Below, piece by piece: positions 2,808 through 63,200 of a stretch of DNA of 64,000 nt; position 1 is the stretch's first letter, and each line of letters starts with the position of its first letter. The DNA comes from Glaucostegus cemiculus (taxonomy: Eukaryota), in NCBI GenBank assembly GCA_976551045.1, contig CDPCPM010000375.1, positions 868,001 through 932,000 on the forward strand, in the 5' to 3' direction. The position numbers and the translations under genes are program-made. The notes beneath the pieces are model-generated. The model was not told where the DNA came from and searched no databases. It was given only the letters and a program-made list of their open reading frames with translations.

Positions 2808-2972
2808 CTTTGAATAATATGAGTTAGGCAAACTGATCTCCAGGTTGCGACTGCCATCATATTTCACTGACAGACCAAAATCTGTCTCAACTATTGTGTA
2901 GATACCATTTGTTATAACGTTTATCCCTTTCACATGACGTGGGATTGGTGTGCGGGTCCTTACTCCGTCCAG
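2808..2972 (-). CDS. Exon: middle part of the last visible VWD domain (LDGVRTRTP...[11 protein letters not shown]...YYSK)
   Basis: tag acceptor, gtaagt donor, 165 nt, phase 0-0, VWD TxFGLxVxxDG motif. Confidence 0.85.
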
Positions 2973-3255
2973 CTAGAAAAGAACATACTTTGTATGATAT
3001 AGACATCGTCAACTATGAAGAAACAGAACTATTTTACAACACTGAAAATAGATAAGATAAGATACTTATTAGTCACATGCACATCGAAACACACAGTGAA
3101 ATGCATCTTTTCGTATTACTGAGAATGTACTGGGGGCAGCCCTCAAGTGTCACCACTCTTACGGCACCAACATAGCATGCACACAGCTCCTAACAGGAGC
3201 ACCCGGAGGAAACCCACGCAGACACGGGGAAGAAAGAAAAAGAGAGGGAGAGAGA

Positions 3256-3296
<41 letters not shown>

Positions 3297-15200: not shown

Positions 15201-18200
15201 GTAAATTAATGGCACTTTCCTTAATTGGCCATTTTATTCTGTTTTGCACAACGGTAAATGTTAAGAGTTCATTCAGCCATGATGGCATGACATCTGAGCC
15301 TGGTGCTTGTCTACCGTAGATGATCAGGAGTGCAAATCCAGGATGTTTTTTCCCTTATTACTGTTTATGACAACAGTCAGTATATTATAACATCTATAAC
15401 CAAATGCTGATCCTAACTGCTTCCTAAACTGATGTTTCCAATTGCTAAGGTTGCTGTTCAATATCAAGACATAATTTACACTCAAAATAAATTACATCCA
15501 TTCTCCCCTTTGGAAAACTGACCTGATCCTCATAGAACCATAGAACAATACAGCACAATACAGGCCATTCGGCCCACCATGTTGTGCCAACCTTCAAACA
15601 ACACCTAAGACTATCTAATCCCTTCCTCCCACATATCCCTCTATCTTAAATTCCTCCATTTGCTGATCTAACAATCTCTTGAACTTGACCAATGTATCAG
15701 CCTCCACCACCACCCCAGGCAGCACATTCCATGGACCAACCACTCTCTGGGTGAAAAACCTCCCTCTGACATCTCCCTTGAACTTCCCACCTATAACCTT
15801 AAAGGTATGCCCTCTTGTATTGAGCATTGGTGCCCTGGGAAAGAAGCACTGGCTGTCCGCTCTATCTATTCCTCTTAATATCTTGCATACCTCTATCATG
15901 TCTCCTTTCCTCTAAAGCCCCAGCTCCTTTAGCCTCTCCTCATAATCCATACTCTCTAATCCAGGCAGCAGATAGGAAGCAGATGTTGAGAATGAATAGG
16001 GAATGCCCATATTACCCAAAATCAGGTCGTGCAAATGATGGTTATAATTATTTATTTAAAATTAAAGAAGGAGCACATAAATAAAACTGTGCAATAGCTG
16101 AACCTGGAACTGCAACAGCACTAGATGGCAGAATTGTGAACAGTCCTGAAAAAGATCTGAATGTAATGAGGAAGACAATAACTACTTATTGACTGCAGTG
16201 ATATGAAAAAATTAGCAAAGCAGATCGCCAAATAAATCGATGAAATGACACCAGACAAAATCCAATCCTTTGACTACTTGCAGAAGATATCGTCATAACA
16301 ACAAAAATTAAAAACATTTTAGAGGGATGCTCGTTCCATTAATCTCCTGTTTCTGTTCATTTGGTGCTCTCTTATTGTTTCTGGAAGGATGGGAATGAAG
16401 AAAATTAACATTGCAGGTGACATGCCACAGCCGAGAAGGTAACACACTAAAAATTGGAATAAGAGAGGGAGAACTGCAAAGCTCTCCTTTTTATGACATG
16501 CCCATGATGGGCAGAATGGCCTCTTTCGCTGCCATGAATTTCTACCCTTCTGTTTGACTCCAATCAAAAACTGCACAATGAGGGGACGGCACGATAGCGC
16601 AGCGGTTAGCGTGATGCTGTTACGGTGCCAGCGATCGGGGTTCGATTCCTGTCGCTGACTGTAAGGAGTTTGTACGTTCTCCCGTGTCTGCGTGGGTTTC
16701 CTCCGGGGGCTCCAGTTTCCTCCCACATTCCAAAGACGTATGGGTAGATTAATTTGGGGGTTTAAAATGGGCGGCGCGGACTCGTTGAGCCGAAAGGGCC
16801 TGTTACCATGCGGTAAGGAAAATTTTAAAAAAAGAAGGTCCCTATTCACATGCACATTGCTTTCCTTTACCTGTCTGGTCAGGCATCGTGGTACTGGCTG
16901 TAGTTGAGATGCTTGTGGTAGCTGTTGTGCCACACCCCTCAGTGGGAAAAGATGGAACAGACTCAGAAGACTTAATAACCTTATCTTTTACACAATAAAC
17001 ACATTGGATCACATTTCCAGGCTGATGAAGCATGAGAAAAGAAAATGCATCTGTAGTGTAACATCAATCGTCATCATGAAAACTATTGCTGGGGTTAGTA
17101 TTGACCACATTTCAGAAATACAGCCACCATATATGTCAGACCAACCTCCACAACATCCGACTTGGAAGGAAATATCATCCACAGCAACATCACTGCGGTA
17201 GTCATTGCCCCGGACTGCTTCAAGGAGGATCTGTCAGAGAAAGTATCACAATATCAATAGACAACAGCAAGTCAAACAGCATAACTGAAGTAATTCACCT
17301 TCATTTGACTCTTAGAAAACACAGGCACAGAGCAGTCCCTAAATTGTGACAAAACAAATCAAAAAAGAACAAATCCGAAGGTGAGGTAAAATGTAACTGC
17401 TGGTTATTCAAGTTTTTCAAGGACAAAAACACTGCACTTGACCTGGTCATTTTGGTCAAGTGAGAGGAAAATGGAATTTCACCCGAAGAAGTGCGAGATG
17501 ATATCTCTGGGAAGCTGCAACAAGAATATACAGTGAATGGCAAAATATAGACTGGTGAGAGGAACAAAAATATATTGGAATGCACATTCCAGACCTTTAA
17601 AGTTTTAATGACAGGTCAAAAAGGTGATGGACAATGGACGCTGCATGCTGCCCATTACCAACTGGGGGATAGAATATCTGAGCAGCAAGGTTACGTTTAA
17701 CATCATGCAACAATACTTAGGCCAAGAGTACAGTATTCTGTACAGGTTTCATGACAAATTACACACAATATGTGATTGCACTGGAGAGGATATAAATCAG
17801 ATTTATGAAGATGTTTCCAGGATGGCAATGTTGCATCGATGACAAAAACATGGATAACCGAAATTTATTTGCAACAGAAATGGGTGAGGAGATACAACTG
17901 AGGAGTATAAAATGATCAACAAGATGAGGAACAGCAGATTCGAAGGGATAGTTTCCCTCAGCACTAAGGAGAATGAGGAAAGCTACCTCAGCCAGCGGCT
18001 GAAAATTAAAAAGAAATTTTAAGGGGCTGAAGCTCATTGCTTGAAGAGACAGAAATCCTCAATGCATTGAAAGAGTATGGACAGACTCATGAACGATGGA
18101 CAAAGTGGTGGAAAATGAAATGAAATTAAGCAGTTCGTTTCAAAGCAACACAGACACCAAAGACTAAATGGCCTCTGCTTTGTTGTTTATTTTCTATGAT

Positions 18201-21200
18201 TTCCATATCGCTTAAATATTATCGACGTAGCTTACCCGAGAGTCTCCAGAGAGGTCAAGGTCTACTTCTCCTTCCATCCATTGGTTTCCCTTATTTCCTG
18301 ACTCAGACCACTTCAGGACTGATGCCCCGCTTTCAACCTGGTAAACATTCAAAGCCATGCTTCGAGCTACTCCATACATATGGTACCAGAATCGCATGCA
18401 ATGAGCTCCTCTCTTCGCACATGGAGCACTGACCAAATGGGCTCGGTCTCCTGGTCGCCCGTCATTGCCTTCAATGTAGATGTAGGAACCACCTGCGCAT
18501 ACCAGAAGGTTTATTAGTCAGACAGAAATCAGCTGCACAGTGGCTAGACGTCAATCTCACATCACTGACCTGCAGTGGTGTGGTCAAAAGGCGGTCCTGT
18601 GTTATATGAAGGTGTCGGCCCACTGATGCGTTTCCAGTCCAACGTATCGGTCTTGGATTGCGTCCACTGGCACAGGTCACCATCAAAGTTACAATCCCAT
18701 GAACAACCTGTGGGTTTCATAAAGGCACATCATTTGTCTGAATGCACTCAACAACAGCTAGAAATCATTCCATATCTGCAATACCATACTATTCAATAAA
18801 GGCATTGAAAAGTGCGGCTCAGGAGTGTACTTTATGGGAGTTATTTGATCATTCTACACAACGACTCATCAGGACTAATTCTACAAATGAGGATGGGCTA
18901 TTAACCAACACGTGCAGGGAAAGGAAGACACATGACATTCTCTCTCATGGCGAGGCTGGCTGCTACGACAGACAGCTGAAAGTATGCAATGAGATGACAG
19001 TGCCAGTCTTCAGAGACATTCCTTCTGCTGCTATAGACAGCTTGAAGTACTTCCTTCTTCTTGCACCAAATTCTGGAAGGACAAAAAACTCCACATTTTT
19101 AAAGCTACACTGACACTGAATTTTCCTTGAGGAGAAACAGTTGCCTGAGTAACTCTCATCCTCTCCCACCCCAACTGTTCTTCCCGACTGAGGCAATTCG
19201 GTACCCCCTTTACCACTCTCTTTCATTACAGCCTGATGCGGTCACAGAAATGTCAATCAAAGATGGCAAACCTAGCTTGTAACAGCAATTGAAACACTAA
19301 GACATCTTGAAATCCAACTTTCATAAATGGACGATAAAATGCATTGAACGAAAAGGCATTTGCACAACGCTCTGCAAAGAAATTCAGCTACAGCTGATTA
19401 AGACCGACAAGCTTATGTTTTCAAGTGAAAATGTGCTTTATCTATTAACTGGATTTCTCCACGTAACACATGCAGGAATAAAACACAGGAACAGAAGAAG
19501 ATTTCAGACTTACTTTTATCAATGCAGCCACTCTGCTGCCTCCAATCTCCCAGAACAACATCAGCTGCTTCACAAGCTGAAGCATAAGACTCCAGCGTGT
19601 TGCACATCTGAACTGAATCTCCGCCAGTCACGCAATGATCATAGACGCAGCTCTCAAAGTAGAGCTGAGGTGGGATATGCCAGTGGCACTCGTTAAATGG
19701 ACCAGGGTTGGCCAAAATTATTTTGCAGTATCTCTCTGCCTCTTGGCTTGCTGCTGGATCGCACAGCGGTGGAACTGGAGCAGTTTGATTACACCTGTGC
19801 AACAGAAACAATCTCTCACTTTTCTCAAATCAAAACTGTCTATCATCCCATTCAATCCCCTTCAAAGCGGGGATGGCTTGGCAGAAAAACCTAGCATGTC
19901 ATCAAAATAGGCAGCAGTCAACATGATTCCATTACGCAACTGAAAAGACTGAAATGCATCCTGAAAACAACACTAGGAAAACCATTTCACTTCCTTCCTG
20001 TGTGCTGCTGTCATTCGAGAGAACAAGACACAAGGGTGGATTTGAATAGCTCCTTGAAATCTCTTCCTTGCCCCAACATTCCTTAACTTCAACCAACCTC
20101 CTCACTTTGCGTGACTTCTCACTCTCATGTCTGGAGAAACCTTAGCATCTGCCTTCACGGAAATAAGAGACAGAAATACTCACAGCCAATCGTCATCAGT
20201 AACCATCCAACTGTTTCCAAACTGATTTGAATCCAAAGCTAGAATTCCATCAGGTTTCAAGAAGTCATCCAACTGGTCATTGGTGTAGGTCCCGCATAAG
20301 CCACACAGCTGTCCTTTGTATCTCTCATCCACAGTCACAACCAGTTGATGGTCTCCGTCAAACTTCACCTGAAGACCAAAGTTGGTCTGCAGCACCACAT
20401 ACGATCCTACCAGTGACAGTCTTACCGAAGAACTGGCTCGCACTGGGAGCTCAACCCTCACTCCGTCAACCTGAGCAAAGCATTAGCGAGTTAGCCACTG
20501 TAAAATCACAAACAACCCAGCTATCGCTCTACGTCATTTCAAGGCTGAAAATTAGACTCATCAGAGTATATCTTACTCACATAAACGTGCTTGTTTTTCC
20601 GCACTGCAATGTGAAGCTTCTCCAGATGCACGCTAACCGAATTAAGGACAGTCCATCTTGGACTACCTCTGTGCTCGTTTCGACTCGTCACAGAAAATCG
20701 AACAGATGTGTTTCCACAAGTCTCAGTCACCGTATAATTGCAAGCACCCTGGAAGTGGTACAGCTTCCCATCAAACGTCGTATAGTGCGGGTCACCGTAG
20801 ACGTGGCAAATGGCAGTGTCCGCGCTGTAACATCCCAAATTGCCGCCCTGCACTTTGCAAATTTCCCCCGCTCCACAAGATCCTGCTTCGCACTCTATTC
20901 GGTCATTCCCAGTGCAGCGGCACCTCTCTCGACAGCCGTCTTCCCAGAACATTGCACCTTTCTGACACACGGACAGCAAGCATTAGTTTCAAAATTGCTG
21001 CATGCTCTGAAAGGAAGCAGAACCCTGCTCCCATACAAACCAAAGCCCACCTCAAACACTCCCAACTGACCTCGTAGTATTTGTCCTTGTGCATGCAGCC
21101 ACAGTTCTCCACAGGCACACACGAGCTTCCACTCAGGACAAAGCCAACGTTACACTCACAGTCCTCCACACAAGGTTTACTGCAGTTAGCTGAAGCTAAA

Positions 21201-24200
21201 CGGTCCGTGCAAGTGGCTGGACAAGCGCTGGCACATGCGTTGTAATGGCTGTTGGCTGGACACCTGACAGCTGAAAGCATACAAGCAGCAAAAACTTTGA
21301 CACTTCAACCAAAGAAACTTCACAGAAGGCAATTCTCTGACACAATGTCGTTCCATCCTCACATTGGCAAGTATTACACCAACTGCATTTGCACCTAACT
21401 CATACGTACCACAGAAACTGGAGTTCCTCCACGGCACGATGGTCACTCCTGCGCTTTGGCAGGCGTCTGCATAGATTTGCAGGGCATTACACAAAGCTCC
21501 TTGGTCTCCATCCAACAAGCACAGTTCAACGACACAACTTTCAAAGCTCCCGTGGGCGTTGATTACAGAGTGGCAGTTTACAAATGGCCCCTGCTGACTG
21601 GTGATCAGACCACAGAAATCATTACTTTGGTAGCGCTCCTCCTCAGCCGGCTCACACACTTCTGGCTCGACCGGGTCACAACCTGGCTCGTCAGGTGGCA
21701 CCTTCCAGCTATTTCCCAGCTCGTTGGAATCTTTAGCTTGCTCTCCGTCAGGTTTCATGTAATCGTCCTTTCTCATCCCATTGTAGTTACCGCACATACC
21801 GCAAGTCTGATTAAAGTACGTGCTCGGCACCTTCACTTCCACTGAATGATCAGTGTCGTAAGAAACCGACAGGCCAAAGTCAGTGGACAGGACCACGTAT
21901 CTTCCGCTCCTACTCACACTCACGCCACCCTCAGCGAGCCGAACAGGTAAGGTCGCCCACACTTCATCCACCTGAGCACGAGAGCAAACACTGTATCAGG
22001 CAGCAATCTTCCTGCCACACCACGGCAACCATTCGCTCCCCGCACCATTCACGCTCCAGCAGCAATCCAAGCAACCGGCATTTCACCACTGTGCACGCCT
22101 AATTAGACGAGGCGTCACATGTATGGACATTCAGATCCGTTCAGACCACTCGCTTCAGCTTGCCATGAAAACTGGCAATGCCACTTCAGCTCAACTCACT
22201 TCCAATGCACTGCATCATAAATTCTTAGTCACTCACATCTTCAACTGCAAACAAAAGGCTTTACCGAAGCAATGATTCCAAATAAGATGATTGGCAGAAA
22301 GGGCTGTACTTTAGCAGACTTAGACTTACAGTACAAGACTTACCAACACGCGGTGACGTTCCATCTTCACCAGCCAAACCCTGTGGCCGTGAACAGCAAC
22401 CTGAACTCTCTGAACGTAAGAGACTTTAGCGTTGCCACGATTTTCATTCTTCGCTTCAATGTTGAAGGGTGCAAGGGAGGACGAATTTCCACACAGCTTG
22501 GCTATGGTGTAGGTACAGCTACCCATAAAATGGAGCGTCGCTTTGTCAAACGTGTTGTAATGCGGATCGTTGTGCACTCTGCAGATACCATATGTATATG
22601 GGTAGCAACCAGGAACGCCGTTCACAACTCCACAGTGGGAATCTGGAGCACACGCTGAATCCCGGCACACCACTTTACTGCCTGCCGAAGGACAGCTACA
22701 TTTTCTTGAGCAGGTATCATCTGTCCAGAATTCAGAGCCCACTGGGTAGTGCTTTCCTTCTGACCAGCAACCGCACTCATGTCTTGGCACACATCGGTCG
22801 TTGTACAAGACGTAACCACTGTCACATACACAGCCTTCCACGCATGGCTGCAAGCAGCTGGACGGAGCACCTGGACTCACGCAAGTAGCTGGGCAAGCTG
22901 AGCCACACTGCTCATAATGACTATTCGCTCCACATTGTAGGGCTGTGAACGGAATCCACAAGGTTACACGTTACTTTCATCCGCAATTCCTTCCGCAGAC
23001 ACGCAACTCAAAACTCATCGCTCAATCTCTTCTGGTTGCTCTCTATCTCCACTAAGTGTTTCATTGAATGATCTAGCAGTGTACTCTCAAGCACTTACGG
23101 CAAAAGCTCTCATTCCTCCAGGCTTCCACTCTCGCTCCCTCGGACTGGCATGCATCTCCATAGGACTCCAAACTACTGCACAGAGACTCCGGCTCCACGC
23201 CTAACGCACAAAGGTCGTACACGCAGTCACCAAAATAGACTTCCGGATCGACCTTGGAATGGCACTCTTTGAAAGGACCCTGTGCATCCGTTATTATTCC
23301 ACAGTAATATTTACTTTCTATCATGTGCCTTTCATCCTTCGTGCAATTTGGTCTGATGCCCACGTCAGGAGTACACCTGCAAAAGCAGCAGCATGCCAAA
23401 TGAGAAATACTTCAAGCTATATCAAATCTCTGCAAGCAAATGATGGAAATTACAAATAGCACACTTTTCAAAGGAACGGAAATATTACCAACAGCTTGGT
23501 TACAAGTGTACCTTGTGTCATTGTTAGACTGCCAACTGTTGCCCAAGCTGACCGAATCAGGCTCCATTATTCCATCCGGGTTCAGGAAATCATCTCCTCT
23601 GTCTCCATTATAGTTTCCACACATGCCACACACCTTGCCTTTGAAGAGACTAGGGAGAGTCACCTCAGCTCGATGCCTGCCATTGAACTTCACTCCCAAT
23701 CCAAAACTGGTGGTAATGACGACATACTGCCCAGTCAGAGCCACCGCAACGTCTGAGCTGACTGACACAGGGAGCACTGCCACTTCCCCATCAACCTGCA
23801 AACATACGGATCACTCGTCAATTCACTCTTCTGCCATCACACACTTCAATACACCTCATCAAGACACTTACCGCATCAAAGTCTTACCTTTACCACACGC
23901 CCCTTTCCTAGCGTGATTCTGTGATTGTAAACATCAACGTTGACTTGTCTGACGTAAGACACGTAGGGATTTCCTGACCTGTGCTCATTTGCAGCTTCAA
24001 CATTGAAAGAGGGCAGACCGCTGCTGCTGCTGCACAGCTTTGATAAGGTATATGTGCATGTTCCCATAAAGTCGTGAGCTTGCTTATCAAAGGTCATGTA
24101 GTGCGGATCTCCTTGCACTGTGCAGGACGATTCTAAATGCAGTAAAACAAAGATCAATTGGTCGAATGTCAGTAAAACACATACAGGCCACTTACAACAC

Positions 24201-27200
24201 TACCAGGAATTATTTGGTTTTCTTTACAAATGGGCCTCAGGGGAGAATTAATTCAAGTCTACCTAATCATTGTTGCATTAGGATCTCAATCCGCAGCTGG
24301 CATCTTCCTCACTACAGACAGATTTTAAGGAACTGGCAGAAGGAATAGACGGGAACTACAAGAAGATATTTCACCCACAGGGTGGACCTCGGTGCTTTGC
24401 AACGCAACAACTTAAAAGAAATGGTCCATGCCAACACAATCCCACAACAACCTTCATATGTGACCACATATTCAGGTGAACTGGCTTAAGCCAGAAGGTT
24501 GCAGACTGAAAACTGGAACAAGCAAAATACAGCCAACTGCTTCTTTGGCATGTCCACGATGGCCTGAGAGGCCTCCTTCTAGCACCTGAATTTCTACCAT
24601 TCTGCAAGTCTCCAATCTAAAACAGCACCACGAAGATCCCACATCACAGGTACATTCTATTCCTTTACTTGTATTGTCAGGCATCACGGTACTGGCTGTA
24701 GTTGAGATGCTTATTGTGGGTGGTGTTCCACAAACCTCTGCAGAAATAAGATAGTCCAGACTCAGGACAATTTAACTTTTATACCATAAACACATCGCGT
24801 CACACTTGCAGCCTACCGAAGCATGCAAAACCAAAAGAGAACCACAGTTTTACAGGAGAAATACCAACCTCCTGAACTAAAACCAATGCCGGCGTGGGCA
24901 TTGTCTACATTTAAGAAATACAGTCAAAGGAGCCACCACATATTTCACACCAACCTCCACAACATCCTACGTGCAAGGAAATGTCATCCACAGCAACATC
25001 ACTCCGGTAGTCATTGCCCCGGACTGCTTCAAGGAGGATCTGTCAGAGAAAGCATTACAATATCAGCAGGCAACAGCCTCAAATAGCATCATTTTAGCAT
25101 CACCCTTTCAATTCACAGTGGCAAAGCAGAGGCACACACCAGCTCTCAACTCTTCACCAAACAAATCCAGAGAATACACACCTCAGTACCGTTTAAAATC
25201 TAACCACATTACTCAAGTTATTCTCGCACAGAGACACGGAAAAAGGTAGGTCGCTACACTCTGCTTTATTGTTTATTTTCTATGAATTCCATGATTTAAA
25301 AGGAACTCTCAACTAATATCCACGTAGCTTACCCGAGAGTCTCCAGAGAGGTCAAGGTCTACTTCTCCTTCCATCCATTGGTTTCCCTTATTTCCTGACT
25401 CAGACCACTTCAGGACTGATGCCCCGCTTTCAACCTGGTAAACATTCAAAGCCATGCTTCGAGCTACTCCATACATATGGTACCAGAATCGCATGCAATG
25501 AGCTCCTCTCTTCGCACATGGAGCACTGACCAAATGGGCTCGGTCTCCTGGTCGCCCGTCATTGCCTTCAATGTAGATGTAGGAACCACCTGCGCATACC
25601 AGAAGGTTTATTAGTCAGACAGAAATCAGCTGCACAGTGGCTAGACGTCAATCTCACATCACTGACCTGCAGTGGTGTGGTCAAAAGGCGGTCCTGTGTT
25701 ATATGAAGGTGTCGGCCCACTGATGCGTTTCCAGTCCAACGTATCGGTCTTGGATTGCGTCCACTGGCACAGGTCACCATCAAAGTTACAATCCCATGAA
25801 CAACCTGTGGGTTTCATAAAGGCACATCATTTGTCTGAATGCACTCAACAACAGCTAGAAATCATTCCATATCTGCAATACCATACTATTCAATAAAGGC
25901 ATTGAAAAGTGCGGCTCAGGAGTGTACTTTATGGGAGTTATTTGATCATTCTACACAACGACTCATCAGGACTAATTCTACAAATGAGGATGGGCTATTA
26001 ATCAACACGTGCAGGGAAAGGAAGACACGTGACATTCTCTCTCATGGCGAGGCTGGCTGCTACGACAGACAGCTGAAAGTATGCAATGAGATGACAGTGC
26101 CAGTCTTCAGAGACATTCCTTCTGCTGCTATAGACAGCTTGAAGTACTTCCTTCTTCTTGCACCAAATTCTGGAAGGACAAAAAACTCCACATTTTTAAA
26201 GCTACACTGACACTGAATTTTCCTTGAGGAGAAACAGTTGCCTGAGTAACTCTCATCCTCTCCCATCCCAACTGTTCTTCCCGACTGAGGCAATTCGGTA
26301 CCCCCTTTACCACTCTCTTTCATTACAGCCTGATGCGGTCACAGAAATGTCAATCAAAGATGGCAAACCTAGCTTGTAACAGCAATTGAAACACTAAGAC
26401 ATCTTGAAATCCAACTTTCATAAATGGACGATAAAATGCATTGAACGAAAAGGCATTTGCACAACGCTCTGCAAAGAAATTCAGCTACAGCTGATTAAGA
26501 CCGACAAGCTTATGTTTTCAAGTGAAAATGTGCTTTATCTATTAACTGGATTTCTCCACGTAACACATGCAGGAATAAAACACAGGAACAGAAGAAGATT
26601 TCAGACTTACTTTTATCAATGCAGCCACTCTGCTGCCTCCAATCTCCCAGAACAACATCAGCTGCTTCACAAGCTGAAGCATAAGACTCCAGCGTGTTGC
26701 ACATCTGAACTGAATCTCCGCCAGTCACGCAATGATCATAGACGCAGCTCTCAAAGTAGAGCTGAGGTGGGATATGCCAGTGGCACTCGTTAAATGGACC
26801 AGGGTTGGCCAAAATTATTTTGCAGTATCTCTCTGCCTCTTGGCTTGCTGCTGGATCGCACGGCGGTGGAACTGGAGCAGTTTGATTACACCTGTGCAAC
26901 AGAAACAATCTCTCACTTTTCTCAAATCAAAACTGTCTATCATCCCATTCAATCCCCTTCAAAGCGGGGATGGCTTGGCAGAAAAACCTAGCATGTCATC
27001 AAAATAGGCAGCAGTCAACATGATTCCATTACGCAACTGAAAAGACTGAAATGCATCCTGAAAACAACACTAGGAAAACCATTTCACTTCCTTCCTGTGT
27101 GCTGCTGTCATTCGAGAGAACAAGACACAAGGGTGGATTTGAATAGCTCCTTGAAATCTCTTCCTTGCCCCAACATTCCTTAACTTCAACCAACCTCCTC

Positions 27201-51200: not shown

Positions 51201-54200
51201 TACACAGCCTTCCACGCATGGCTGCAAGCAGCTGGACGGAGCACCTGGACTCACGCAAGTAGCTGGGCAAGCTGAGCCACACTGCTCATAATGACTATTC
51301 GCTCCACATTGTAGGGCTGTGAACGGAATCCACAAGGTTACACGTTACTTTCATCCGCAATTCCTTCCGCCGACACGCAACTCAAAACTCATCGCTCAAT
51401 CTCTTCTGGTTGCTCTCTATCTCCACTAAGTGTTTCATTGAATGATCTAGCAGTGTACTCTCAAGCACTTACGGCAAAAGCTCTCATTCCTCCAGGCTTC
51501 CACTCTCGCTCCCTCGGATTGGCATGCATCTCCATAGGACTCCAAACTACTGCACAGAGACTCCGGCTCCACGCCTAACGCACAAAGGTCGTACACGCAG
51601 TCACCAAAATAAACTTCCGGATCGACCTTGGAATGGCACTCTTTGAAAGGACCCTGTGCATCCGTTATTATTCCACAGTAATATTTACTTTCTATCATGT
51701 GCCTTTCATCCTTCGTGCAATTTGGTCTGATGCCCACGTCAGGAGTACACCTGCAAAAGCAGCAGCATGCCAAATGAGAAATACTTCAAGCTATATCAAA
51801 TCTCTGCAAGCAAATGATACAAATAGCACACTTTTCAAAGGAACGGAAATATTACCAACAGCTTGGTTACAAGTGTACCTTGTGTCATTGTTAGACTGCC
51901 AACTGTTGCCCAAGCTGACCGAATCAGGCTCCATTATTCCATCCGGGTTCAGGAAATCATCTCCTCTGTCTCCATTATAGTTTCCACACATGCCACACAC
52001 CTTGCCTTTGAAGAGACTAGGGAGAGTCACCTCAGCTCGATGCCTGCCATTGAACTTCACTCCCAATCCAAAACTGGTGGTAATGACGACATACTGCCCA
52101 GTCAGAGCCACCGCAACGTCTGAGCTGACTGACACAGGGAGCACTGCCACTTCCCCATCAACCTGCAAACATACGGATCACTCGTCAATTCACTCTTCTG
52201 CCATCACACACTTCAATACACCTCATCAAGACACTTACCGCATCAAAGTCTTACCTTTACCACACGCCCCTTTCCTAGCGTGATTCTGTGATTGTAAACA
52301 TCAACGTTGACTTGTCTGACGTAAGACACGTAGGGATTTCCTGACCTGTGCTCATTTGCAGCTTCAACATTGAAAGAGGGCAGACCGCTGCTGCTGCTGC
52401 ACAGCTTTGATAAGGTATATGTGCATGTTCCCATAAAGTCGTGAGCTTGCTTATCAAAGGTCATGTAGTGCGGATCTCCTTGCACTGTGCAGGACGATTC
52501 TAAATGCAGTAAAACAAAGATCAATTGGTCGAATGTCAGTAAAGCACATACAGGCCACTTACAACACTACCAGGAATTATTTGGTTTTCTTTACAAATGG
52601 GCCTCAGGGGAGAATTAATTCAAGTCTACATAATCATTGTTGCATTAGGATCTCAATCCGCAGCTGGCATCTTCCTCACTACAGACAGATTTTAAGGAAC
52701 TGGCAGAAGGAATAGACGCGAACTACAAGAAGATATTTCACCCACAGAGTGGACCTCGGTGCTTTGCAACGCAACAACTTAAAAGAAATGGTCCATGCCA
52801 ACACAATCCCACAACAACCTTCATATGTGACCACATATTCAGGTGAACTGGCTTAAGCCAGAAGGTTGCAGACTGAAAACTGGAACAAGCAAAATAAAGC
52901 CAACTGCTTCTTTGGCATGTCCACGATGGCCTGAGAGGCCTCCTTCTAGCACCTGAATTTCTACCATTCTGCAAGTCTCCAATCTAAAACAGCACCACGA
53001 AGATCCCACATCACACGTACATTCTATTCCTTTACCTGTATTGTCAGGCATCACGGCTGTAGTTGAGATGCTTATTGTGGGTGGTGTTCCACAAACCTCT
53101 GCAGAAATAAGATAGTCCAGACTCAGGACAATTTAACTTTTATACCATAAACACATCGCGTCACACTTGCAGCCTACCGAAGCATGCAAAACCAAAAGAG
53201 AACCACAGTTTTACAGGAGAAATACCAACCTCCTGAACTAAAACCAATGCCGGCGTGGGCATTGTCTACATTTAAGAAATACAGTCAAAGGAGCCACCAC
53301 ATATTTCACACCAACCTCCACAACATCCTACGTGCAAGGAAATGTCATCCACAGCAACATCACTCCGGTAGTCATTGCCCCGGACTGCTTCAAGGAGGAT
53401 CTGTCAGAGAAAGCATTACAATATCAGCAGGCAACAGCCTCAAATAGCATCATTTTAGCATCACCCTTTCAATTCACAGTGGCAACGCAGAGGCACACAC
53501 CAGCTCTCAACTCTTCACCAAACAAATCCAGAGAATACACACCTCAGTACCGTTGAAAATCTAACCACAGTACTCAAGTTATTCTCGCACAGAGACACGG
53601 AAAAAGGTAGGTCGCTACACTCTGCTTTACTGTTTATTTTCTATGAATTCCATGATTTAAAAGGAACTCTCAACTAATATCCACGTAGCTTACCCGAGAG
53701 TCTCCAGAGAGGTCAAGGTCTACTTCTCCTTCCATCCATTGGTTTCCCTTATTTCCTGACTCAGACCACTTCAGGACTGATGCCCCGCTTTCAACCTGGT
53801 AAACATTCAAAGCCATGCTTCGAGCTACTCCATACATATGGTACCAGAATCGCATGCAATGAGCTCCCCTCTTCGCACATGGAGCACTGACCAAATGGGC
53901 TCGGTCTCCTGGTCGCCCGTCATTGCCTTCAATGTAGATGTAGGAACCACCTGCGCATACCAGAAGGTTTATTAGTCAGACAGAAATCAGCTGCACAGTG
54001 GCTAGACGTCAATCTCACATCACTGACCTGCAGTGGTGTGGTCAAAAGGCGGTCCTGTGTTATATGAAGGTGTCGGCCCACTGATGCGTTTCCAGTCCAA
54101 CGTATCGGTCTTGGATTGCGTCCACTGGCACAGGTCACCATCAAAGTTACAATCCCATGAACAACCTGTGGGTTTCATAAAGGCACATCATTTGTCTGAA

Positions 54201-57200
54201 TGCACTCAACAACAGCTAGAAATCATTCCATATCTGCAATACCATACTATTCAATAAAGGCATTGAAAAGTGCGGCTCAGGAGTGTACTTTATGGGAGTT
54301 ATTTGATCATTCTACACAACGACTCATCAGGACTAATTCTACAAATGAGGATAGGCTATTAACCAACACGTGCAGGGAAAGGAAGACACATGACATTCCC
54401 TCTCATGAGGAGGCTGGCTGCTACGACAGACAGCTGAAAGTATGCAATGAGATGACAGTGCCAGTCTTCAGAGACATTCCTTCTGCTGCTATAGACAGCT
54501 TGAAGTACTTCCTTCTTCTTGCACCAAATTCTGGAAGGACAAAAAACTCCAAATTTTCAAAGCTACACTGACACTGAATTTTCCTTGAGGAGAAACAGTT
54601 GCCTGAGTAACTCTCATCCTCTCCCACCCCAACTGTTCTTCCCGACTGAGGCAATTCGGTACCCCCTTTACCACTTTCTTTCATTACAGCCTGACGCGGT
54701 CACAGAAATATCAATCAAAGATGGCAAACCTAGCTTGTAACAGCAATTGAAACACTAAGACATCTTGAAATCCAACTTTCATAAATGGACGATAAAATGC
54801 ATTGAACGTAAAGGCATTTGCACAACGCTCTGCAAAGAAATTCAGCTACAGCTGATTAACACCGACAAGCTTGTGTTTTCAAGTGAAAATGTGCTTTATC
54901 TATTAACTTTATCTATTAACACATGCAGGAATAAAACACAGGAACAGAAGAAGATTTCAGACTTACTTGTATCAATGCAGCCACTCTGCTGCCTCCAATC
55001 TCCCAGAACAACATCAGCTGCTTCACAAGCTGAAGCATAAGACTCCAGCGTGTTGCACATCTGAACTGAATCTCCGCCAGTCACGCAATGATCATAGACG
55101 CAGCTCTCAAAGTAGAGCTGAGGTGGGATATGCCAGTGGCACTCGTTAAATGGACCAGGGTTGGCCAAAATTATTTTGCAGTATCTCTCTGCCTCTTGGC
55201 TTGCTGCTGGATCGCACGGCGGTGGAACTGGAGCAGTTTGATTACACCTGTGCAACAGAAACAATCTCTCACTTTTCTCAAATAAAAACTGTCTATCATC
55301 CCATTCAATCCCCTTCAAAGCGGGGATGGCTTGGCAGAAAAACCTAGCATGTCATCAAAATAGGCAGCAGTCAACATGATTCCATTACGCAACTGAAAAG
55401 ACTGAAATGCATCCTGAAAACAACACTAGGAAAACCATTTCACTTCCTTCCTGTGTGCTGCTGTCATTCGAGAGAACAAGACACAAGGGTGGATTTGAAT
55501 AGCTCCTTGAAATCTCTTCCTTGCCCCAACATTCCTTAACTTCAACCAACCTCCTCACTTTGCGTGACTTCTCACTCTCATGTCTGGAGAAACCTTAGCA
55601 TCTGCCTTCACGGAAATAAGAGACAGAAATACTCACAGCCAATCGTCATCAGTAACCATCCAACTGTTTCCAAACTGATTTGAATCCAAAGCTAGAATTC
55701 CATCAGGTTTCAAGAAGTCATCCAACTGGTCATTGGTGTAGGTCCCGCATAAGCCACACAGCTGTCCTTTGTATCTCTCATCCACAGTCACAACCAGTTG
55801 ATGGTCTCCGTCAAACTTCACCTGAAGACCAAAGTTGGTCTGCAGCACCACATACGATCCTACCAGTGACAGGCTTACCGAAGAACTGGCTCGCACTGGG
55901 AGCTCAACCCTCACTCCGTCAACCTGAGCAAAGCATTAGCGAGTTAGCTACTGTAAAATCACAAACAACCCAGCTATCGCTCTACGTCATTTCAAGGCTG
56001 AAAATTAGACTCATCAGAGTATATCTTACTCACATAAACGTGTTTGTTTTTCCGCACTGCAATGTGAAGCTTCTCCAGATGCACGCTAACCGAATTAAGG
56101 ACAGTCCATCTTGGACTACCTCTGTGCTCGTTTCGACTCGTCACAGAAAATCGAACAGATGTGTTTCCACAAGTCTCAGTCACCGTATAATTGCAAGCAC
56201 CCTGGAAGTGGTACAGCTTCCCATCAAACGTCGTATAGTGCGGGTCACCGTAGACGTGGCAAATGGCAGTGTCCGCGCTGTAACATCCCAAATTGCCGCC
56301 CTGCACTTTGCAAATTTCCCCCGCTCCACAAGATCCTGCTTCGCACTCTATTCGGTCATTCCCAGTGCAGCGGCACCTCTCTCGACAGCCGTCTTCCCAG
56401 AACATTGCACCTTTCTGACACACGGACAGCAAGCATTAGTTTCAAAATTGCTGCATGCTCTGAAAGGAAGCAGAACCCTGCTCCCATACAAACCAAAGCC
56501 CACCTCAAACACTCCCAACTGACCTCGTAGTATTTGTCCTTGTGCATGCAGCCACAGTTCTCCACAGGCACACACGAGCTTCCACTCAGGACAAAGCCAA
56601 CGTTACACTCACAGTCCTCCACACAAGGTTTACTGCAGTTAGCTGAAGCTAAACGGTCCGTGCAAGTGGCTGGACAAGCGCTGGCACATGCGTTGTAATG
56701 GCTGTTGGCTGGACACCTGACAGCTGAAAGCACACAAGCAGCAAAAACTTTGACACTTCAACCAAAGAAACTTCACAGAAGGCAATTCTCTGACACAATG
56801 TCGTTCCATCCTCACATTGGCAAGTATTACACCAACTGCATTTGCACCTAACTCATACGTACCACAGAAACTGGAGTTCCTCCACGGCACGATGGTCACT
56901 CCTGCGCTTTGGCAGGCGTCTGCATAGATTTGCAGGGCATTACACAAAGCTCCTTGGTCTCCATCCAACAAGCACAGTTCAACGACACAACTTTCAAAGC
57001 TCCCGTGGGCGTTGATTACAGAGTGGCAGTTTACAAATGGCCCCTGCTGACTGGTGATCAGACCACAGAAATCATTACTTTGGTAGCGCTCCTCCTCAGC
57101 CGGCTCACACACTTCTGGCTCGACCGGGTCACAACCTGGCTCGTCAGGTGGCACCTTCCAGCTATTTCCCAGCTCGTTGGAATCTTTAGCTTGCTCTCCG

Positions 57201-60200
57201 TCAGGTTTCATGTAATCGTCCTTTCTCATCCCATTGTAGTTACCGCACATACCGCAAGTCTGATTAAAGTACGTGCTCGGCACCTTCACTTCCACTGAAT
57301 GATCAGTGTCGTAAGAAACCGACAGGCCAAAGTCAGTGGACAGGACCACGTATCTTCCGCTCCTACTCACACTCACGCCACGCTCAGCGAGCCGAACAGG
57401 TAAGGTCGCCCACACTTCATCCACCTGAGCACGAGAGCAAACACTGTATCAGGCAGCAATCTTCCTGCCACACCACGGCAACCATTCGCTCCCCGCACCA
57501 TTCACGCTCCAGCAGCAATCCAAGCAACCGGCATTTCACCACTGTGCACGCCTAATTAGACGAGGCGTCACATGTATGGACATTCAGATCCGTTCAGACC
57601 ACTCGCTTCAGCTTGCCATGAAAACTGGCAATGCCACTTCAGCTCAACTCACTTCCAATGCACTGCATCATAAATTCTTAGTCACTCACATCTTCAACTG
57701 CAAACAAAAGGCTTTACCGAAGCAATGATTCCAAATAAGATGACTGGCAGAAAGGGCTGTACTTTAGCAGACTTAGACTTACAGTACAAGACTTACCAAC
57801 ACGCGGTGACGTTCCATCTTCACCAGCCAAACCCTGTGGCCGTGAACAGCAACCTGAACTCTCTGAACGTAAGAGACTTTAGCGTTGCCACGATTTTCAT
57901 TCTTCGCTTCAATGTTGAAGGGTGCAAGGGAGGACGAATTTCCACACAGCTTGGCTATGGTGTAGGTACAGCTACCCATAAAATGGAGCGTCGCTTTGTC
58001 AAACGTGTTGTAATGCGGATCGTTGTGCACTCTGCAGATACCATATGTATATGGGTAGCAACCAGGAACGCCGTTCACAACTCCACAGTGGGAATCTGGA
58101 GCACACGCTGAATCCCGGCACACCACTTTACTGCCTGCCGAAGGACAGCTACATTTTCTTGAGCAGGTATCATCTGTCCAGAATTCAGAGCCCACTGGGT
58201 AGTGCTTTCCTTCTGACCAGCAACCGCACTCATGTCTTGGCACACATCGGTCGTTGTACAAGACGTAACCACTGTCACATACACAGCCTTCCACGCATGG
58301 CTGCAAGCAGCTGGACGGAGCACCTGGACTCACGCAAGTAGCTGGGCAAGCTGAGCCACACTGCTCATAATGACTATTCGCTCCACATTGTAGGGCTGTG
58401 AACGGAATCCACAAGGTTACACGTTACTTTCATCCGCAATTCCTTCCGCAGACACGCAACTCAAAACTCATCGCTCAATCTCTTCTGGTTGCTCTCTATC
58501 TCCACTAAGTGTTTCATTGAATGATCTAGCAGTGTACTCTCAAGCACTTACGGCAAAAGCTCTCATTCCTCCAGGCTTCCACTCTCGCTCCCTCGGACTG
58601 GCATGCATCTCCATAGGACTCCAAACTACTGCACAGAGACTCCGGCTCCACGCCTAACGCACAAAGGTCGTACACGCAGTCACCAAAATAGACTTCCGGA
58701 TCGACCTTGGAATGGCACTCTTTGAAAGGACCCTGTGCATCCGTTATTATTCCACAGTAATATTTACTTTCTATCATGTGCCTTTCATCCTTCGTGCAAT
58801 TTGGTCTGATGCCCACGTCAGGAGTACACCTGCAAAAGCAGCAGCATGCCAAATGACAAATACTTCAAGCTATATCAAATCTCTGCAAGCAAATGATACA
58901 AATAGCACACTTTTCAAAGGAACGGAAATATTACCAACAGCTTGGTTACAAGTGTACCTTGTGTCATTGTTAGACTGCCAACTGTTGCCCAAGCTGACCG
59001 AATCAGGCTCCATTATTCCATCCGGGTTCAGGAAATCATCTCCTCTGTCTCCATTATAGTTTCCACACATGCCACACACCTTGCCTTTGAAGAGACTAGG
59101 GAGAGTCACCTCAGCTCGATGCCTGCCATTGAACTTCACTCCCAATCCAAAACTGGTGGTAATGACGACATACTGCCCAGTCAGAGCCACCGCAACGTCT
59201 GAGCTGACTGACACAGGGAGCACTGCCACTTCCCCATCAACCTGCAAACATACGGATCACTCGTCAATTCACTCTTCTGCCATCACACACTTCAATACAC
59301 CTCATCAAGACACTTACCGCATCAAAGTCTTACCTTTACCACACGCCCCTTTCCTAGCGTGATTCTGTGATTGTAAACATCAACGTTGACTTGTCTGACG
59401 TAAGACACGTAGGGATTTCCTGACCTGTGCTCATTTGCAGCTTCAACATTGAAAGAGGGCAGACCGCTGCTGCTGCTGCACAGCTTTGATAAGGTATATG
59501 TGCATGTTCCCATAAAGTCGTGAGCTTGCTTATCAAAGGTCATGTAGTGCGGATCTCCTTGCACTGTGCAGGACGATTCTAAATGCAGTAAAACAAAGAT
59601 CAATTGGTCGAATGTCAGTAAAACACATACAGGCCACTTACAACACTACCAGGAATTATTTGGTTTTCTTTACAAATGGGCCTCAGGGGAGAATTAATTC
59701 AAGTCTACCTAATCATTGTTGCATTAGGATCTCAATCCGCAGCTGGCATCTTCCTCACTACAGACAGATTTTAAGGAACTGGCAGAAGGAATAGACGGGA
59801 ACTACAAGAAGATATTTCACCCACAGGGTGGACCTCGGTGCTTTGCAACGCAACAACTTAAAAGAAATGGTCCATGCCAACACAATCCCACAACAACCTT
59901 CATATGTGACCACATATTCAGGTGAACTGGCTTAAGCCAGAAGGTTGCAGACTGAAAACTGGAACAAGCAAAATACAGCCAACTGCTTCTTTGGCATGTC
60001 CACGATGGCCTGAGAGGCCTCCTTCTAGCACCTGAATTTCTACCATTCTGCAAGTCTCCAATCTAAAACAGCACCACGAAGATCCCACATCACAGGTACA
60101 TTCTATTCCTTTACTTGTATTGTCAGGCATCACGGTACTGGCTGTAGTTGAGATGCTTATTGTGGGTGGTGTTCCACAAACCTCTGCAGAAATAAGATAG

Positions 60201-63200
60201 TCCAGACTCAGGACAATTTAACTTTTATACCATAAACACATCGCGTCACACTTGCAGCCTACCGAAGCATGCAAAACCAAAAGAGAACCACAGTTTTACA
60301 GGAGAAATACCAACCTCCTGAACTAAAACCAATGCCGGCGTGGGCATTGTCTACATTTAAGAAATACAGTCAAAGGAGCCACCACATATTTCACACCAAC
60401 CTCCACAACATCCTACGTGCAAGGAAATGTCATCCACAGCAACATCACTCCGGTAGTCATTGCCCCGGACTGCTTCAAGGAGGATCTGTCAGAGAAAGCA
60501 TTACAATATCAGAAGGCAACAGCCTCAAATAGCATCATTTTAGCATCACCCTTTCAATTCACAGTGGCAAAGCAGAGGCACACACCAGCCCTCAACTCTT
60601 CACCAAACAAATCCAGAGAATACACACCTCAGTACCGTTTAAAATCTAACCACATTACTCAAGTTATTCTCGCACAGAGACACGGAAAAAGGTAGGTCGC
60701 TACACTCTGCTTTATTGTTTATTTTCTAGGAATTCCATGATTTAAAAGGAACTCTCAACTAATATCCACGTAGCTTACCCGAGAGTCTCCAGAGAGGTCA
60801 AGGTCTACTTCTCCTTCCATCCATTGGTTTCCCTTATTTCCTGACTCAGACCACTTCAGGACTGATGCCCCGCTTTCAACCTGGTAAACATTCAAAGCCA
60901 TGCTTCGAGCTACTCCATACATATGGTACCAGAATCGCATGCAATGAGCTCCTCTCTTCGCACATGGAGCACTGACCAAATGGGCTCGGTCTCCTGGTCG
61001 CCCGTCATTGCCTTCAATGTAGATGTAGGAACCACCTGCGCATACCAGAAGGTTTATTAGTCAGACAGAAATCAGCTGCACAGTGGCTAGACGTCAATCT
61101 CACATCACTGACCTGCAGTGGTGTGGTCAAAAGGCGGTCCTGTGTTATATGAAGGTGTCGGCCCACTGATGCGTTTCCAGTCCAACGTATCGGTCTTGGA
61201 TTGCGTCCACTGGCACAGGTCACCATCAAAGTTACAATCCCATGAACAACCTGTGGGTTTCATAAAGGCACATCATTTGTCTGAATGCACTCAACAACAG
61301 CTAGAAATCATTCCATATCTGCAATACCATACTATTCAATAAAGGCATTGAAAAGTGCGGCTCAGGAGTGTACTTTATGGGAGTTATTTGATCATTCTAC
61401 ACAACGACTCATCAGGACTAATTCTACAAATGAGGATGGGCTATTAACCAACACGTGCAGGGAAAGGAAGACACATGACATTCTCTCTCATGGCGAGGCT
61501 GGCTGCTACGACAGACAGCTGAAAGTATGCAATGAGATGACAGTGCCAGTCTTCAGAGACATTCCTTCTGCTGCTATAGACAGCTTGAAGTACTTCCTTC
61601 TTCTTGCACCAAATTCTGGAAGGACAAAAAACTCCACATTTTTAAAGCTACACTGACACTGAATTTTCCTTGAGGAGAAACAGTTGCCTGAGTAACTCTC
61701 ATCCTCTCCCACCCCAACTGTTCTTCCCGACTGAGGCAATTCGGTACCCCCTTTACCACTCTCTTTCATTACAGCCTGATGCGGTCACAGAAATGTCAAT
61801 CAAAGATGGCAAACCTAGCTTGTAACAGCAATTGAAACACTAAGACATCTTGAAATCCAACTTTCATAAATGGACGATAAAATGCATTGAACGAAAAGGC
61901 ATTTGCACAACGCTCTGCAAAGAAATTCAGCTACAGCTGATTAAGACCGACAAGCTTATGTTTTCAAGTGAAAATGTGCTTTATCTATTAACTGGATTTC
62001 TCCACGTAACACATGCAGGAATAAAACACAGGAACAGAAGAAGATTTCAGACTTACTTTTATCAATGCAGCCACTCTGCTGCCTCCAATCTCCCAGAACA
62101 ACATCAGCTGCTTCACAAGCTGAAGCATAAGACTCCAGCGTGTTGCACATCTGAACTGAATCTCCGCCAGTCACGCAATGATCATAGACGCAGCTCTCAA
62201 AGTAGAGCTGAGGTGGGATATGCCAGTGGCACTCGTTAAATGGACCAGGGTTGGCCAAAATTATTTTGCAGTATCTCTCTGCCTCTTGGCTTGCTGCTGG
62301 ATCGCACGGCGGTGGAACTGGAGTAGTTTGATTACACCTGTGCAACAGAAACAATCTCTCACTTTTCTCAAATCAAAACTGTCTATCATCCCATTCGATC
62401 CCCTTCAAAGCGGGGATGGCTTGGCAGAAAAACCTAGCATGTCATCAAAATAGGCAGCAGTCAACATGATTCCATTACGCAACTGAAAAGACTGAAATGC
62501 ATCCTGAAAACAACACTAGGAAAACCATTTCACTTCCTTCCTGTGTGCTGCTGTCATTCGAGAGAACAATACACAAGGGTGGATTTGAATAGCTCCTTGA
62601 AATCTCTTCCTTGCCCCAACATTCCTTAACTTCAACCAACCTCCTCACTTTGCGTGACTTCTCACTCTCATGTCTGGAGAAACCTTAGCATCTGCCTTCA
62701 CGGAAATAAGAGACAGAAATACTCACAGCCAATCGTCATCAGTAACCATCCAACTGTTTCCAAACTGATTTGAATCCAAAGCTAGAATTCCATCAGGTTT
62801 CAAGAAGTCATCCAACTGGTCATTGGTGTAGGTCCCGCATAAGCCACACAGCTGTCCTTTGTATCTCTCATCCACAGTCACAACCAGTTGATGGTCTCCG
62901 TCAAACTTCACCTGAAGACCAAAGTTGGTCTGCAGCACCACATACGATCCTACCAGTGACAGTCTTACCGAAGAACTGGCTCGCACTGGGAGCTCAACCC
63001 TCACTCCGTCAACCTGAGCAAAGCATTAGCGAGTTAGCCACTGTAAAATCACAAACAACCCAGCTATCGCTCTACGTCATTTCAAGGCTGAAAATTAGAC
63101 TCATCAGAGTATATCTTACTCACATAAACGTGCTTGTTTTTCCGCACTGCAATGTGAAGCTTCTCCAGATGCACGCTAACCGAATTAAGGACAGTCCATC

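Follow-up and report, generated by a model that had tools for sequence, protein, structure and literature searches.

The 64,000-nucleotide stretch analysed here (the window; positions 868,001 to 932,000 of contig CDPCPM010000375.1 in the Glaucostegus cemiculus assembly GCA_976551045.1) carries a gene in which MAM domains recur at regular intervals between triplets of VWD domains, and the question is which gene this is and how it came to be built in this way. The best overall explanation is that it is very probably an old jawed-vertebrate paralogue of zonadhesin, one that most likely encodes a giant mucosal glycoprotein. It is almost certainly the batoid orthologue in the zonadhesin-like gene (zlg) / chicken 'FCGBP-like' family described by Hunt et al. 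(2005), and the window covers the gene's middle together with a portion of its 3' end. The family was thus already known from its description in 2005, and the mechanism is not a new one.

The gene body is open at both window ends (2808..64000, reverse strand, as are all gene features below) and encodes about 8,400 residues; no neighbouring gene was found in the 64-kb window. It includes a tandem array (18173..64000) of about 6.5 copies of a 7.09-kb, 13-exon unit, and the copies are 99.3-99.6% identical including their introns. Splicing was deduced from the genomic sequence and the gene models of orthologues. All 13 exons of the unit have AG/GT ends and their lengths are constant between copies except for the linker exon, in which two copies differ by a 6-nucleotide in-frame indel. 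The unit is 52% exon, with introns of 77-806 nucleotides, and encodes 1,219-1,221 residues with 86 cysteines in each copy. Joining the exons from 63813 to 17146 gave a spliced frame of 7,870 residues with no stop; a pseudogene or frameshift was ruled out by the absence of stops both here and in a 519-residue 3' tail. The repeat unit was present as DNA in 2 of the 14 sequencing-run rows, from one sample.

The original observation of seven complete MAM domains between 17146 and 61250 was confirmed, the first MAM exon starting at 61250 and the last ending at 17146. The seven three-exon sets start at 61250, 54165, 47082, 39998, 32901, 25804 and 18707, and occupy 60401..61250 (138 + 257 + 85 nucleotides), 53316..54165, 46233..47082, 39149..39998, 32052..32901, 24955..25804 (in the unit taken as reference) and 17146..18707, the last with its third exon outside the homogenised array. 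Since all seven are copies of one tandem unit, they represent one event repeated.

Each unit reads MAM-Thr/Ser linker-VWD-C8-TIL-E-VWD-C8-TIL-E-VWD-C8, repeated n times; the formula first proposed had this order and omitted the E/TILa domain after each TIL. A Pfam scan of 12 of the 13 exons of the reference unit (the linker exon lying outside the scan) returned MAM over three exons, VWD-C8, TIL-TILa-VWD-C8 and again TIL-TILa-VWD-C8. Downstream of its MAM, the reference unit has a Thr/Ser/Pro linker exon at 24669..24737 (69 nucleotides; 63 in the copies at 53098 and 46015, giving linkers of 21-23 residues), VWD-a with a GDPH motif and its C8 in three exons at 23099..24132, TIL, E/TILa, VWD-b with NDPH and C8 in two exons at 21410..22942, and TIL, E/TILa, VWD-c with GDPH and C8 in four exons at 19514..21270, with no TIL after it. 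As anticipated, a Thr/Ser linker and a GDPH-type VWD follow every MAM (7/7; six QGDPH and one SGDPH), the seventh linker exon having a TG acceptor. Over the array there are 13 GDPH and 6 NDPH motifs, with CG[LM]CG in 19 of 19 VWDs, and it is the middle VWD of each triplet that has NDPH and not GDPH.

That each MAM directly follows a C8 lacking a TIL also held in all seven cases: no match to a TIL exon was found in any of the 7 C8-to-MAM introns scanned in six frames with our own TIL, TILa, MAM, C8 and VWD profiles. The intron at 18708..19513 (806 nucleotides), where a missed TIL exon would have undone the proposal, contained no open AG..GT candidate of 120-400 nucleotides with at least six cysteines, and the profile scan and the exon-candidate count together ruled such an exon out. 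The idea that the MAM replaces every third TIL applies to position in the chain only. In an alignment of 47 internal MAMs, six cysteine columns are kept in 46-47 of them and another two in 12-14; a canonical MAM has four cysteines, two fewer than the six columns kept here, and the cysteines would be expected to pair within the domain. An AlphaFold2 model of the VWD-c-C8-MAM segment of Narcine, built from a 10-row alignment, had a mean predicted local distance difference test score of 64.7 and a predicted template-modelling score of 0.42; a fold search with this model recovered the VWD/C8 and MAM folds, the model being too weak to place the MAM.

How widely the unit occurs was examined among 384 proteins, gathered by longer, representative and cluster searches, with domains called by profiles built here. 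VWD domains were present in 224 of them, a VWD-C8-MAM junction in 91, and the full MAM-triplet-MAM string (M-D-c-t-e-D-c-t-e-D-c-M, allowing Pro/Thr/Ser inserts between domains) in 55. Mapped by hand, these 55 correspond to 46 named species and 2 further records, the species comprising 9 chondrichthyans, 1 lungfish, 6 amphibians, 4 turtles, 8 squamates and 18 birds. The suggestion that the architecture is a lineage-specific novelty was ruled out by this range, sharks to birds. Most of the full-string proteins are labelled 'IgGFc-binding protein-like', and their middle VWD has GDPH in 27, NDPH in 25, NDPY in 2 and SDPH in 1. The first VWD-bearing matches to the MAM exon were from Hypanus sabinus (82%), Pristis pectinata (88% over half of the exon) and Chiloscyllium (66%), and the C8-MAM-linker-VWD junction is shared with the closest proteins, the ray models of Hypanus (P0003) and, in part, Pristis (P0012). 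No mammalian protein with a C8-MAM junction was found among the named matches listed; given that the lists hold the best 120, this suggests absence in mammals without establishing it.

The teleost form is short, with two VWDs and as many as 11 MAMs. Three of these proteins (P0055, P0057 and P0064) have the MAM multiplied to 11 copies and bear the source name 'MAM and LDL-receptor class A domain-containing protein 1'; their Pfam lists contain no LDLa. Two lamprey proteins (P0315 and P0353) have two zonadhesin-type MAMs and no interleaved cassette, and the last lamprey VWD is sister to both jawed-vertebrate genes, which suggests that the cassette arose in jawed vertebrates. Two fish proteins with NIDO and ZP in their Pfam lists (P0345 and P0356) have a comparable periodic layout, in which runs of four D assemblies are spaced by inserts of 207-242 residues that may be NIDO domains; in P0345 the insert stands after a C8 without a TIL.

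The identity of the gene was addressed with three trees. Before the VWD and MAM trees were built, domain copies sharing about 90% identity or more within one protein were collapsed and partial domains left out; in the VWD tree Zlg was represented by the teleost proteins P0055 and P0057, picked by architecture. In the VWD tree (143 rows) the triplet positions a, b and c formed clades across species (support 99, 93 and 98), the b clade including the Zlg-type D1 and the c clade the Zlg-type D2; the last three VWDs of the family clustered with those of zonadhesin, and the VWDs of FCGBP fell outside the a, b and c clades. In the MAM tree (57 rows) the interleaved MAMs formed one clade (98) adjoining the teleost Zlg-type MAMs (94), the two joined with support of 84, and the first MAM of the family was nested within zonadhesin MAM1 (99). 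The tail tree (28 rows, mammalian ZAN not included, groups named by architecture beforehand) placed the window with batoids (97) in a family clade of 14 rows (100) that also holds the quail protein P0047, and a grouping of the window tail with zonadhesin was rejected (approximately unbiased test, p = 9e-6). Sharks carry both zonadhesin and the present paralogue. Together with the trees this indicated that the gene is a zonadhesin paralogue with an inserted, repeated cassette. Judging from the orthologues, the family plan starts with a signal peptide and a zonadhesin-type first MAM, continues with n copies of a cassette in which three D assemblies, the third without TIL-E, precede a MAM peculiar to the family and a Thr/Ser/Pro linker, and ends with three zonadhesin-related D assemblies and EGF, plus a transmembrane segment in tetrapods.

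The near identity of the units bears on how the array is maintained. Among six full units there were 10 variable sites in 3,666 exon columns, compared with 46 in 3,435 intron columns, arranged in mosaic blocks; the exon variants comprised 4 synonymous and 6 non-synonymous changes, on 802 and 2,864 sites respectively. The units starting at 61250 and 54165 share one type of C8-to-MAM intron, and those at 54165 and 47082 share exon and intron variants of the first half. Such blocks, common to different neighbours, fit unequal exchange together with conversion. In the shark and ray models adjacent triplets were 99-100% identical within each of the eight (8/8) and 78-86% identical to the window, and in 13 lungfish and tetrapod models the first pair was 66-73% identical in 5 and all other pairs 89-100%. 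Given that triplets are alike within species and diverged between them, homogenisation has been independent in each lineage, and unequal crossing-over and gene conversion would have multiplied and homogenised the 7-kb cassette lineage by lineage, with selection keeping the frame.

By homology, the product would enter the secretory pathway, and VWD-a and VWD-c would cleave themselves between GD and PH. In FCGBP, GDPH self-cleavage occurs in the endoplasmic reticulum and one disulfide holds the pieces together, according to the available part of PMC8267560; as far as PMC10880436 could be consulted, cleavage raises protease resistance and Asp and His are required, Gly not being among the mutants in the section on required residues. 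The cleaved pieces of the present protein would likewise be held by a disulfide from the cysteine before the motif to a cysteine of CGxCG, leaving a protease-resistant chain in which each O-glycosylated linker could act as a hinge, so that the MAMs would be displayed one after another as binding beads. With its compact triplets spaced by one MAM and one short hinge each, the product would be a non-gel-forming protein of the mucosal coat or glycocalyx, most likely in the gut, and by analogy with the relatives we lean towards such a mucosal-coat function. The whole protein probably exceeds 10,000 residues once the missing ends are added. Of the adhesive polymer originally envisaged, the adhesion is a conjecture and the polymer finds no support: what is encoded is one repeated polypeptide, and there is no sign of polymerisation through disulfides, given an even number of cysteines per unit (86) and orthologues whose chains end in EGF, some with a transmembrane segment and some lacking one.

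A number of points weigh against the zonadhesin paralogue with a mucosal role. The trees were all made by a quick method with support from the Shimodaira-Hasegawa-like approximate likelihood ratio test only, and the quail protein P0047 (3 MAM, 9 VWD, 7 TIL) stands in for the chicken protein XP_422715. The contrast between exon and intron variation has a nominal p of 2e-7 that is overstated, because the intron variants are clustered. Gut expression is known from teleost relatives with a different unit count. In addition, 16 of the 55 orthologue models are cut short, and a transmembrane-like segment is present in 30 of the 39 orthologue tails of at least 40 residues and in none of the 4 shark tails, which end after EGF.

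This last point sustains the strongest alternative, which concerns anchoring: the shark and ray protein could be a secreted, soluble or fibrillar scaffold and not a membrane-tethered coat, a minority reading that we take seriously. In its favour, besides the four shark tails, two of these tails have a similar short C-terminus. However, gene models often lose their last exons, as the truncated models illustrate, and a transmembrane segment is found in the tetrapod orthologues, in shark zan and in both lamprey relatives. Going by the sequences, tetrapods would have the zonadhesin paralogue anchored in the membrane, and sharks and rays may secrete it.

Another alternative accepts the gene as real and attributes part of its copy number to inflation by the assembly. 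Over 7.1 kb, no more than 1-5 substitutions separate the units at 39998, 32901 and 25804, so that some inflation is possible, and no retrieved protein has more than five full MAM-led triplets, compared with six in the window. However, the other units differ by 28-48 substitutions, in the mosaic blocks described above, independent models from shark, ray, owl and snake contain equally identical copies, and the protein searches reached up to 8,465 residues, so that longer arrays could not appear in them. We regard inflation as unlikely and the array of the zonadhesin paralogue as probably genuine, the copy in the window being longer than any protein retrieved in searches reaching 8,465 residues.

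Two further identities are very improbable. The gene could be the ray orthologue of zonadhesin (zan) whose middle has been rearranged, with a role in the adhesion of gametes or of the egg coat; the two have in common their MAM, Thr/Ser and VWD content, the first MAM as well as the terminal D assemblies with EGF are of zan type, and the nearest database matches are named 'zonadhesin-like'. Separate zan-type proteins nevertheless exist in sharks and rays (P0067, P0091 and P0154), built as MM-mucin-TIL-E-(D)n-EGF-TM, TM being the transmembrane segment; the MAM-less model P0296 clusters with them, Pristiophorus has both genes, and the window tail is excluded from the zan group in the tail tree, so that zan orthology is largely refuted. 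An FCGBP variant that gained MAM, as the label 'IgGFc-binding protein-like' implies, has for it the long series of D assemblies carrying GDPH, triplets repeated almost without change, as they are in human FCGBP (vWD3-5, 6-8 and 9-11), and FCGBP as the best solved-structure match, but is just as hard to credit given that the FCGBP N-domain PF17517, which true FCGBPs carry, was absent in all three orthologues scanned (quail, zebra shark and gecko; the N-terminus of the window gene itself lies beyond the window) and in precomputed lists of family matches, which argues that the gene is not FCGBP, that none of the a, b and c clades takes in the FCGBP VWDs, and that the orthologues end in EGF and not in a lone dimerising VWD.

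Downstream of the array, the zonadhesin paralogue continues into a single-copy 3' tail at 2808..14539, in which nine exons encode VWD (GDPH)-C8-TIL-E-VWD (degenerate motif) over 519 residues without a stop; it is 86% identical to the Hypanus sabinus model P0003 and 85% to Narcine. Between the two lies the terminal linker exon after the seventh MAM (16871..16939). With TG in place of the acceptor AG this linker may be skipped; the frame is open with or without it, and the linker is absent in the Pristis model P0012 and present in the Hypanus model P0003. The region 2808-17230 is only 12% exon, with introns of up to 2,331 nucleotides, in contrast to the compact array at 18173-64000. Stretches of homologous coding sequence are less interrupted in the unit, either by loss of introns there or by their gain in the tail: the second half of the VWD together with C8 occupies one exon of 562 nucleotides in VWD-b and four exons (559 nucleotides) in the tail. 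The tail introns hold dispersed repeats (1427-1915 on the forward strand; the pairs 4132-4576 and 15537-15970, and 1206-1387 and 16595-16747, 80-86% alike) accompanied by reverse-transcriptase-like reading frames, which look like fragments of CR1-type long interspersed and of short interspersed nuclear elements; no repeat pairs of this kind map inside the array.

Put most broadly, jawed vertebrates other than mammals would carry an unnamed giant zonadhesin paralogue that has been mislabelled as FCGBP, with a cassette of MAM, linker and three D assemblies that resembles a coding variable number tandem repeat, is conserved from sharks to birds and is re-homogenised and altered in copy number in each lineage; in the ray it would exceed 10,000 residues, with self-cleaving joints and evenly spaced MAM beads, and it would have been a main mucosal-coat protein that mammals lost while its sister gene became sperm zonadhesin. 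We give this full statement an even chance. For annotation, the identity of the gene means that FCGBP is the wrong name for many genes outside mammals called 'IgGFc-binding protein-like', with consequences for the interpretation of mucus transcriptomes and proteomes from birds, reptiles, amphibians and sharks, and it adds a missing sister gene to the account of the origin of zonadhesin; the available part of PMC9275260, reporting no Zan or ZanL in birds, does not treat the present paralogue. For structural work the gene also provides a natural example of a MAM attached to a D assembly that lacks TIL-E, and it illustrates cleanly how a coding unit of 7 kb evolves in concert. Apart from the 2005 description of the chicken protein, no published account of the strict unit, its range or its concerted evolution was found, nor any later paper on the family, in a search outside which most subscription journals lay. 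The original view of a poorly described family related to zonadhesin and FCGBP is in agreement with this, and its claim of a novel architecture is largely undone by the chicken protein of Hunt et al.

Compared with known systems, the gene is closest to that family. The part of Hunt et al. (2005; PMC1325057) that was available treats salmon and zebrafish zlg as a family distinct from zonadhesin and describes the chicken 'FCGBP-like' XP_422715 as a protein of 4,770 residues on chromosome 9 with three MAMs and mucin-type sites after each, its VWD1/4, 2/5 and 3/6 pairing with one another and VWD2/5 and 3/6 pairing with VWD1 and VWD2 of Zlg; gut expression is reported there for salmon zlg and, in the literature consulted in part, for zebrafish zan. 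The window gene resembles this family in its internal MAMs after VWD-C8, the mucin-type sites after each MAM (the seventh linker exon having a TG acceptor), the VWD triplet pairing and the same MAM and VWD groupings, the chicken pairings being recovered in the present trees. Unlike the chicken protein with its 3 MAMs, it consists of near-identical units that together carry 7 or more MAMs and no fewer than 21 VWDs; its middle VWD has NDPH, whereas the four birds compared mostly have GDPH; and the teleost zlg-type proteins kept two VWDs and multiplied the MAM instead (11 in P0055 and P0057).

With zonadhesin the gene shares domain content, the first MAM, the last three D assemblies, EGF and, in the tetrapod orthologues, the transmembrane end. 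The accessible sections of Roberts et al. (2022; PMC9275260) define zonadhesin by the order MAM, mucin, tandem VWD with MAMs at the N-terminus only, and record neither Zan nor ZanL for birds or amphibians. The window gene does not show this order; ZAN has N-terminal MAMs followed by one long mucin region and a partial TIL-E, and the window gene forms a separate clade. A caecilian and an axolotl protein (P0071 and P0352) have the zonadhesin order of four MAMs, a long mucin stretch, TIL-E and tandem D assemblies, at odds with the amphibian report as far as that text was available.

As regards FCGBP, the part of Lang et al. (2016; PMC4948705) consulted defines it by its N-domain and mentions MAM a single time in the main text, for zonadhesin. 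A Bombina 'FCGBP' (PMC10206775), considered as a family member, is a true FCGBP instead, going by the portion of that paper available, and no mention of FCGBP, IgGFc or zonadhesin was found in the accessible main text of a shark skin mucus proteome paper (PMC10707392). FCGBP and the window gene have in common a long run of D assemblies, GDPH sites with an upstream cysteine and CGxCG, and a near-identical repeat of three assemblies. The window family differs in lacking the FCGBP N-domain, in its MAM and Thr/Ser linkers, in having every third assembly without TIL-E, and in the EGF end of its orthologues, whereas FCGBP has complete D assemblies only and ends in a lone dimerising VWD. Gel-forming mucins have a long Pro/Thr/Ser domain and a C-terminal cystine knot, unlike the linkers of 21-23 residues seen here and the EGF tails, with or without a transmembrane segment, of the orthologues. 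The RefSeq-type models called 'IgGFc-binding protein-like' in sharks, rays, lungfish, amphibians, reptiles and birds (XP_059507175.1, XP_060690392.1 and XP_032302492.1 among them) have the same unit in the same order, with triplets 56-86% identical to the window, and differ only in copy number (2-5 full triplets in those examined) and in linker length.

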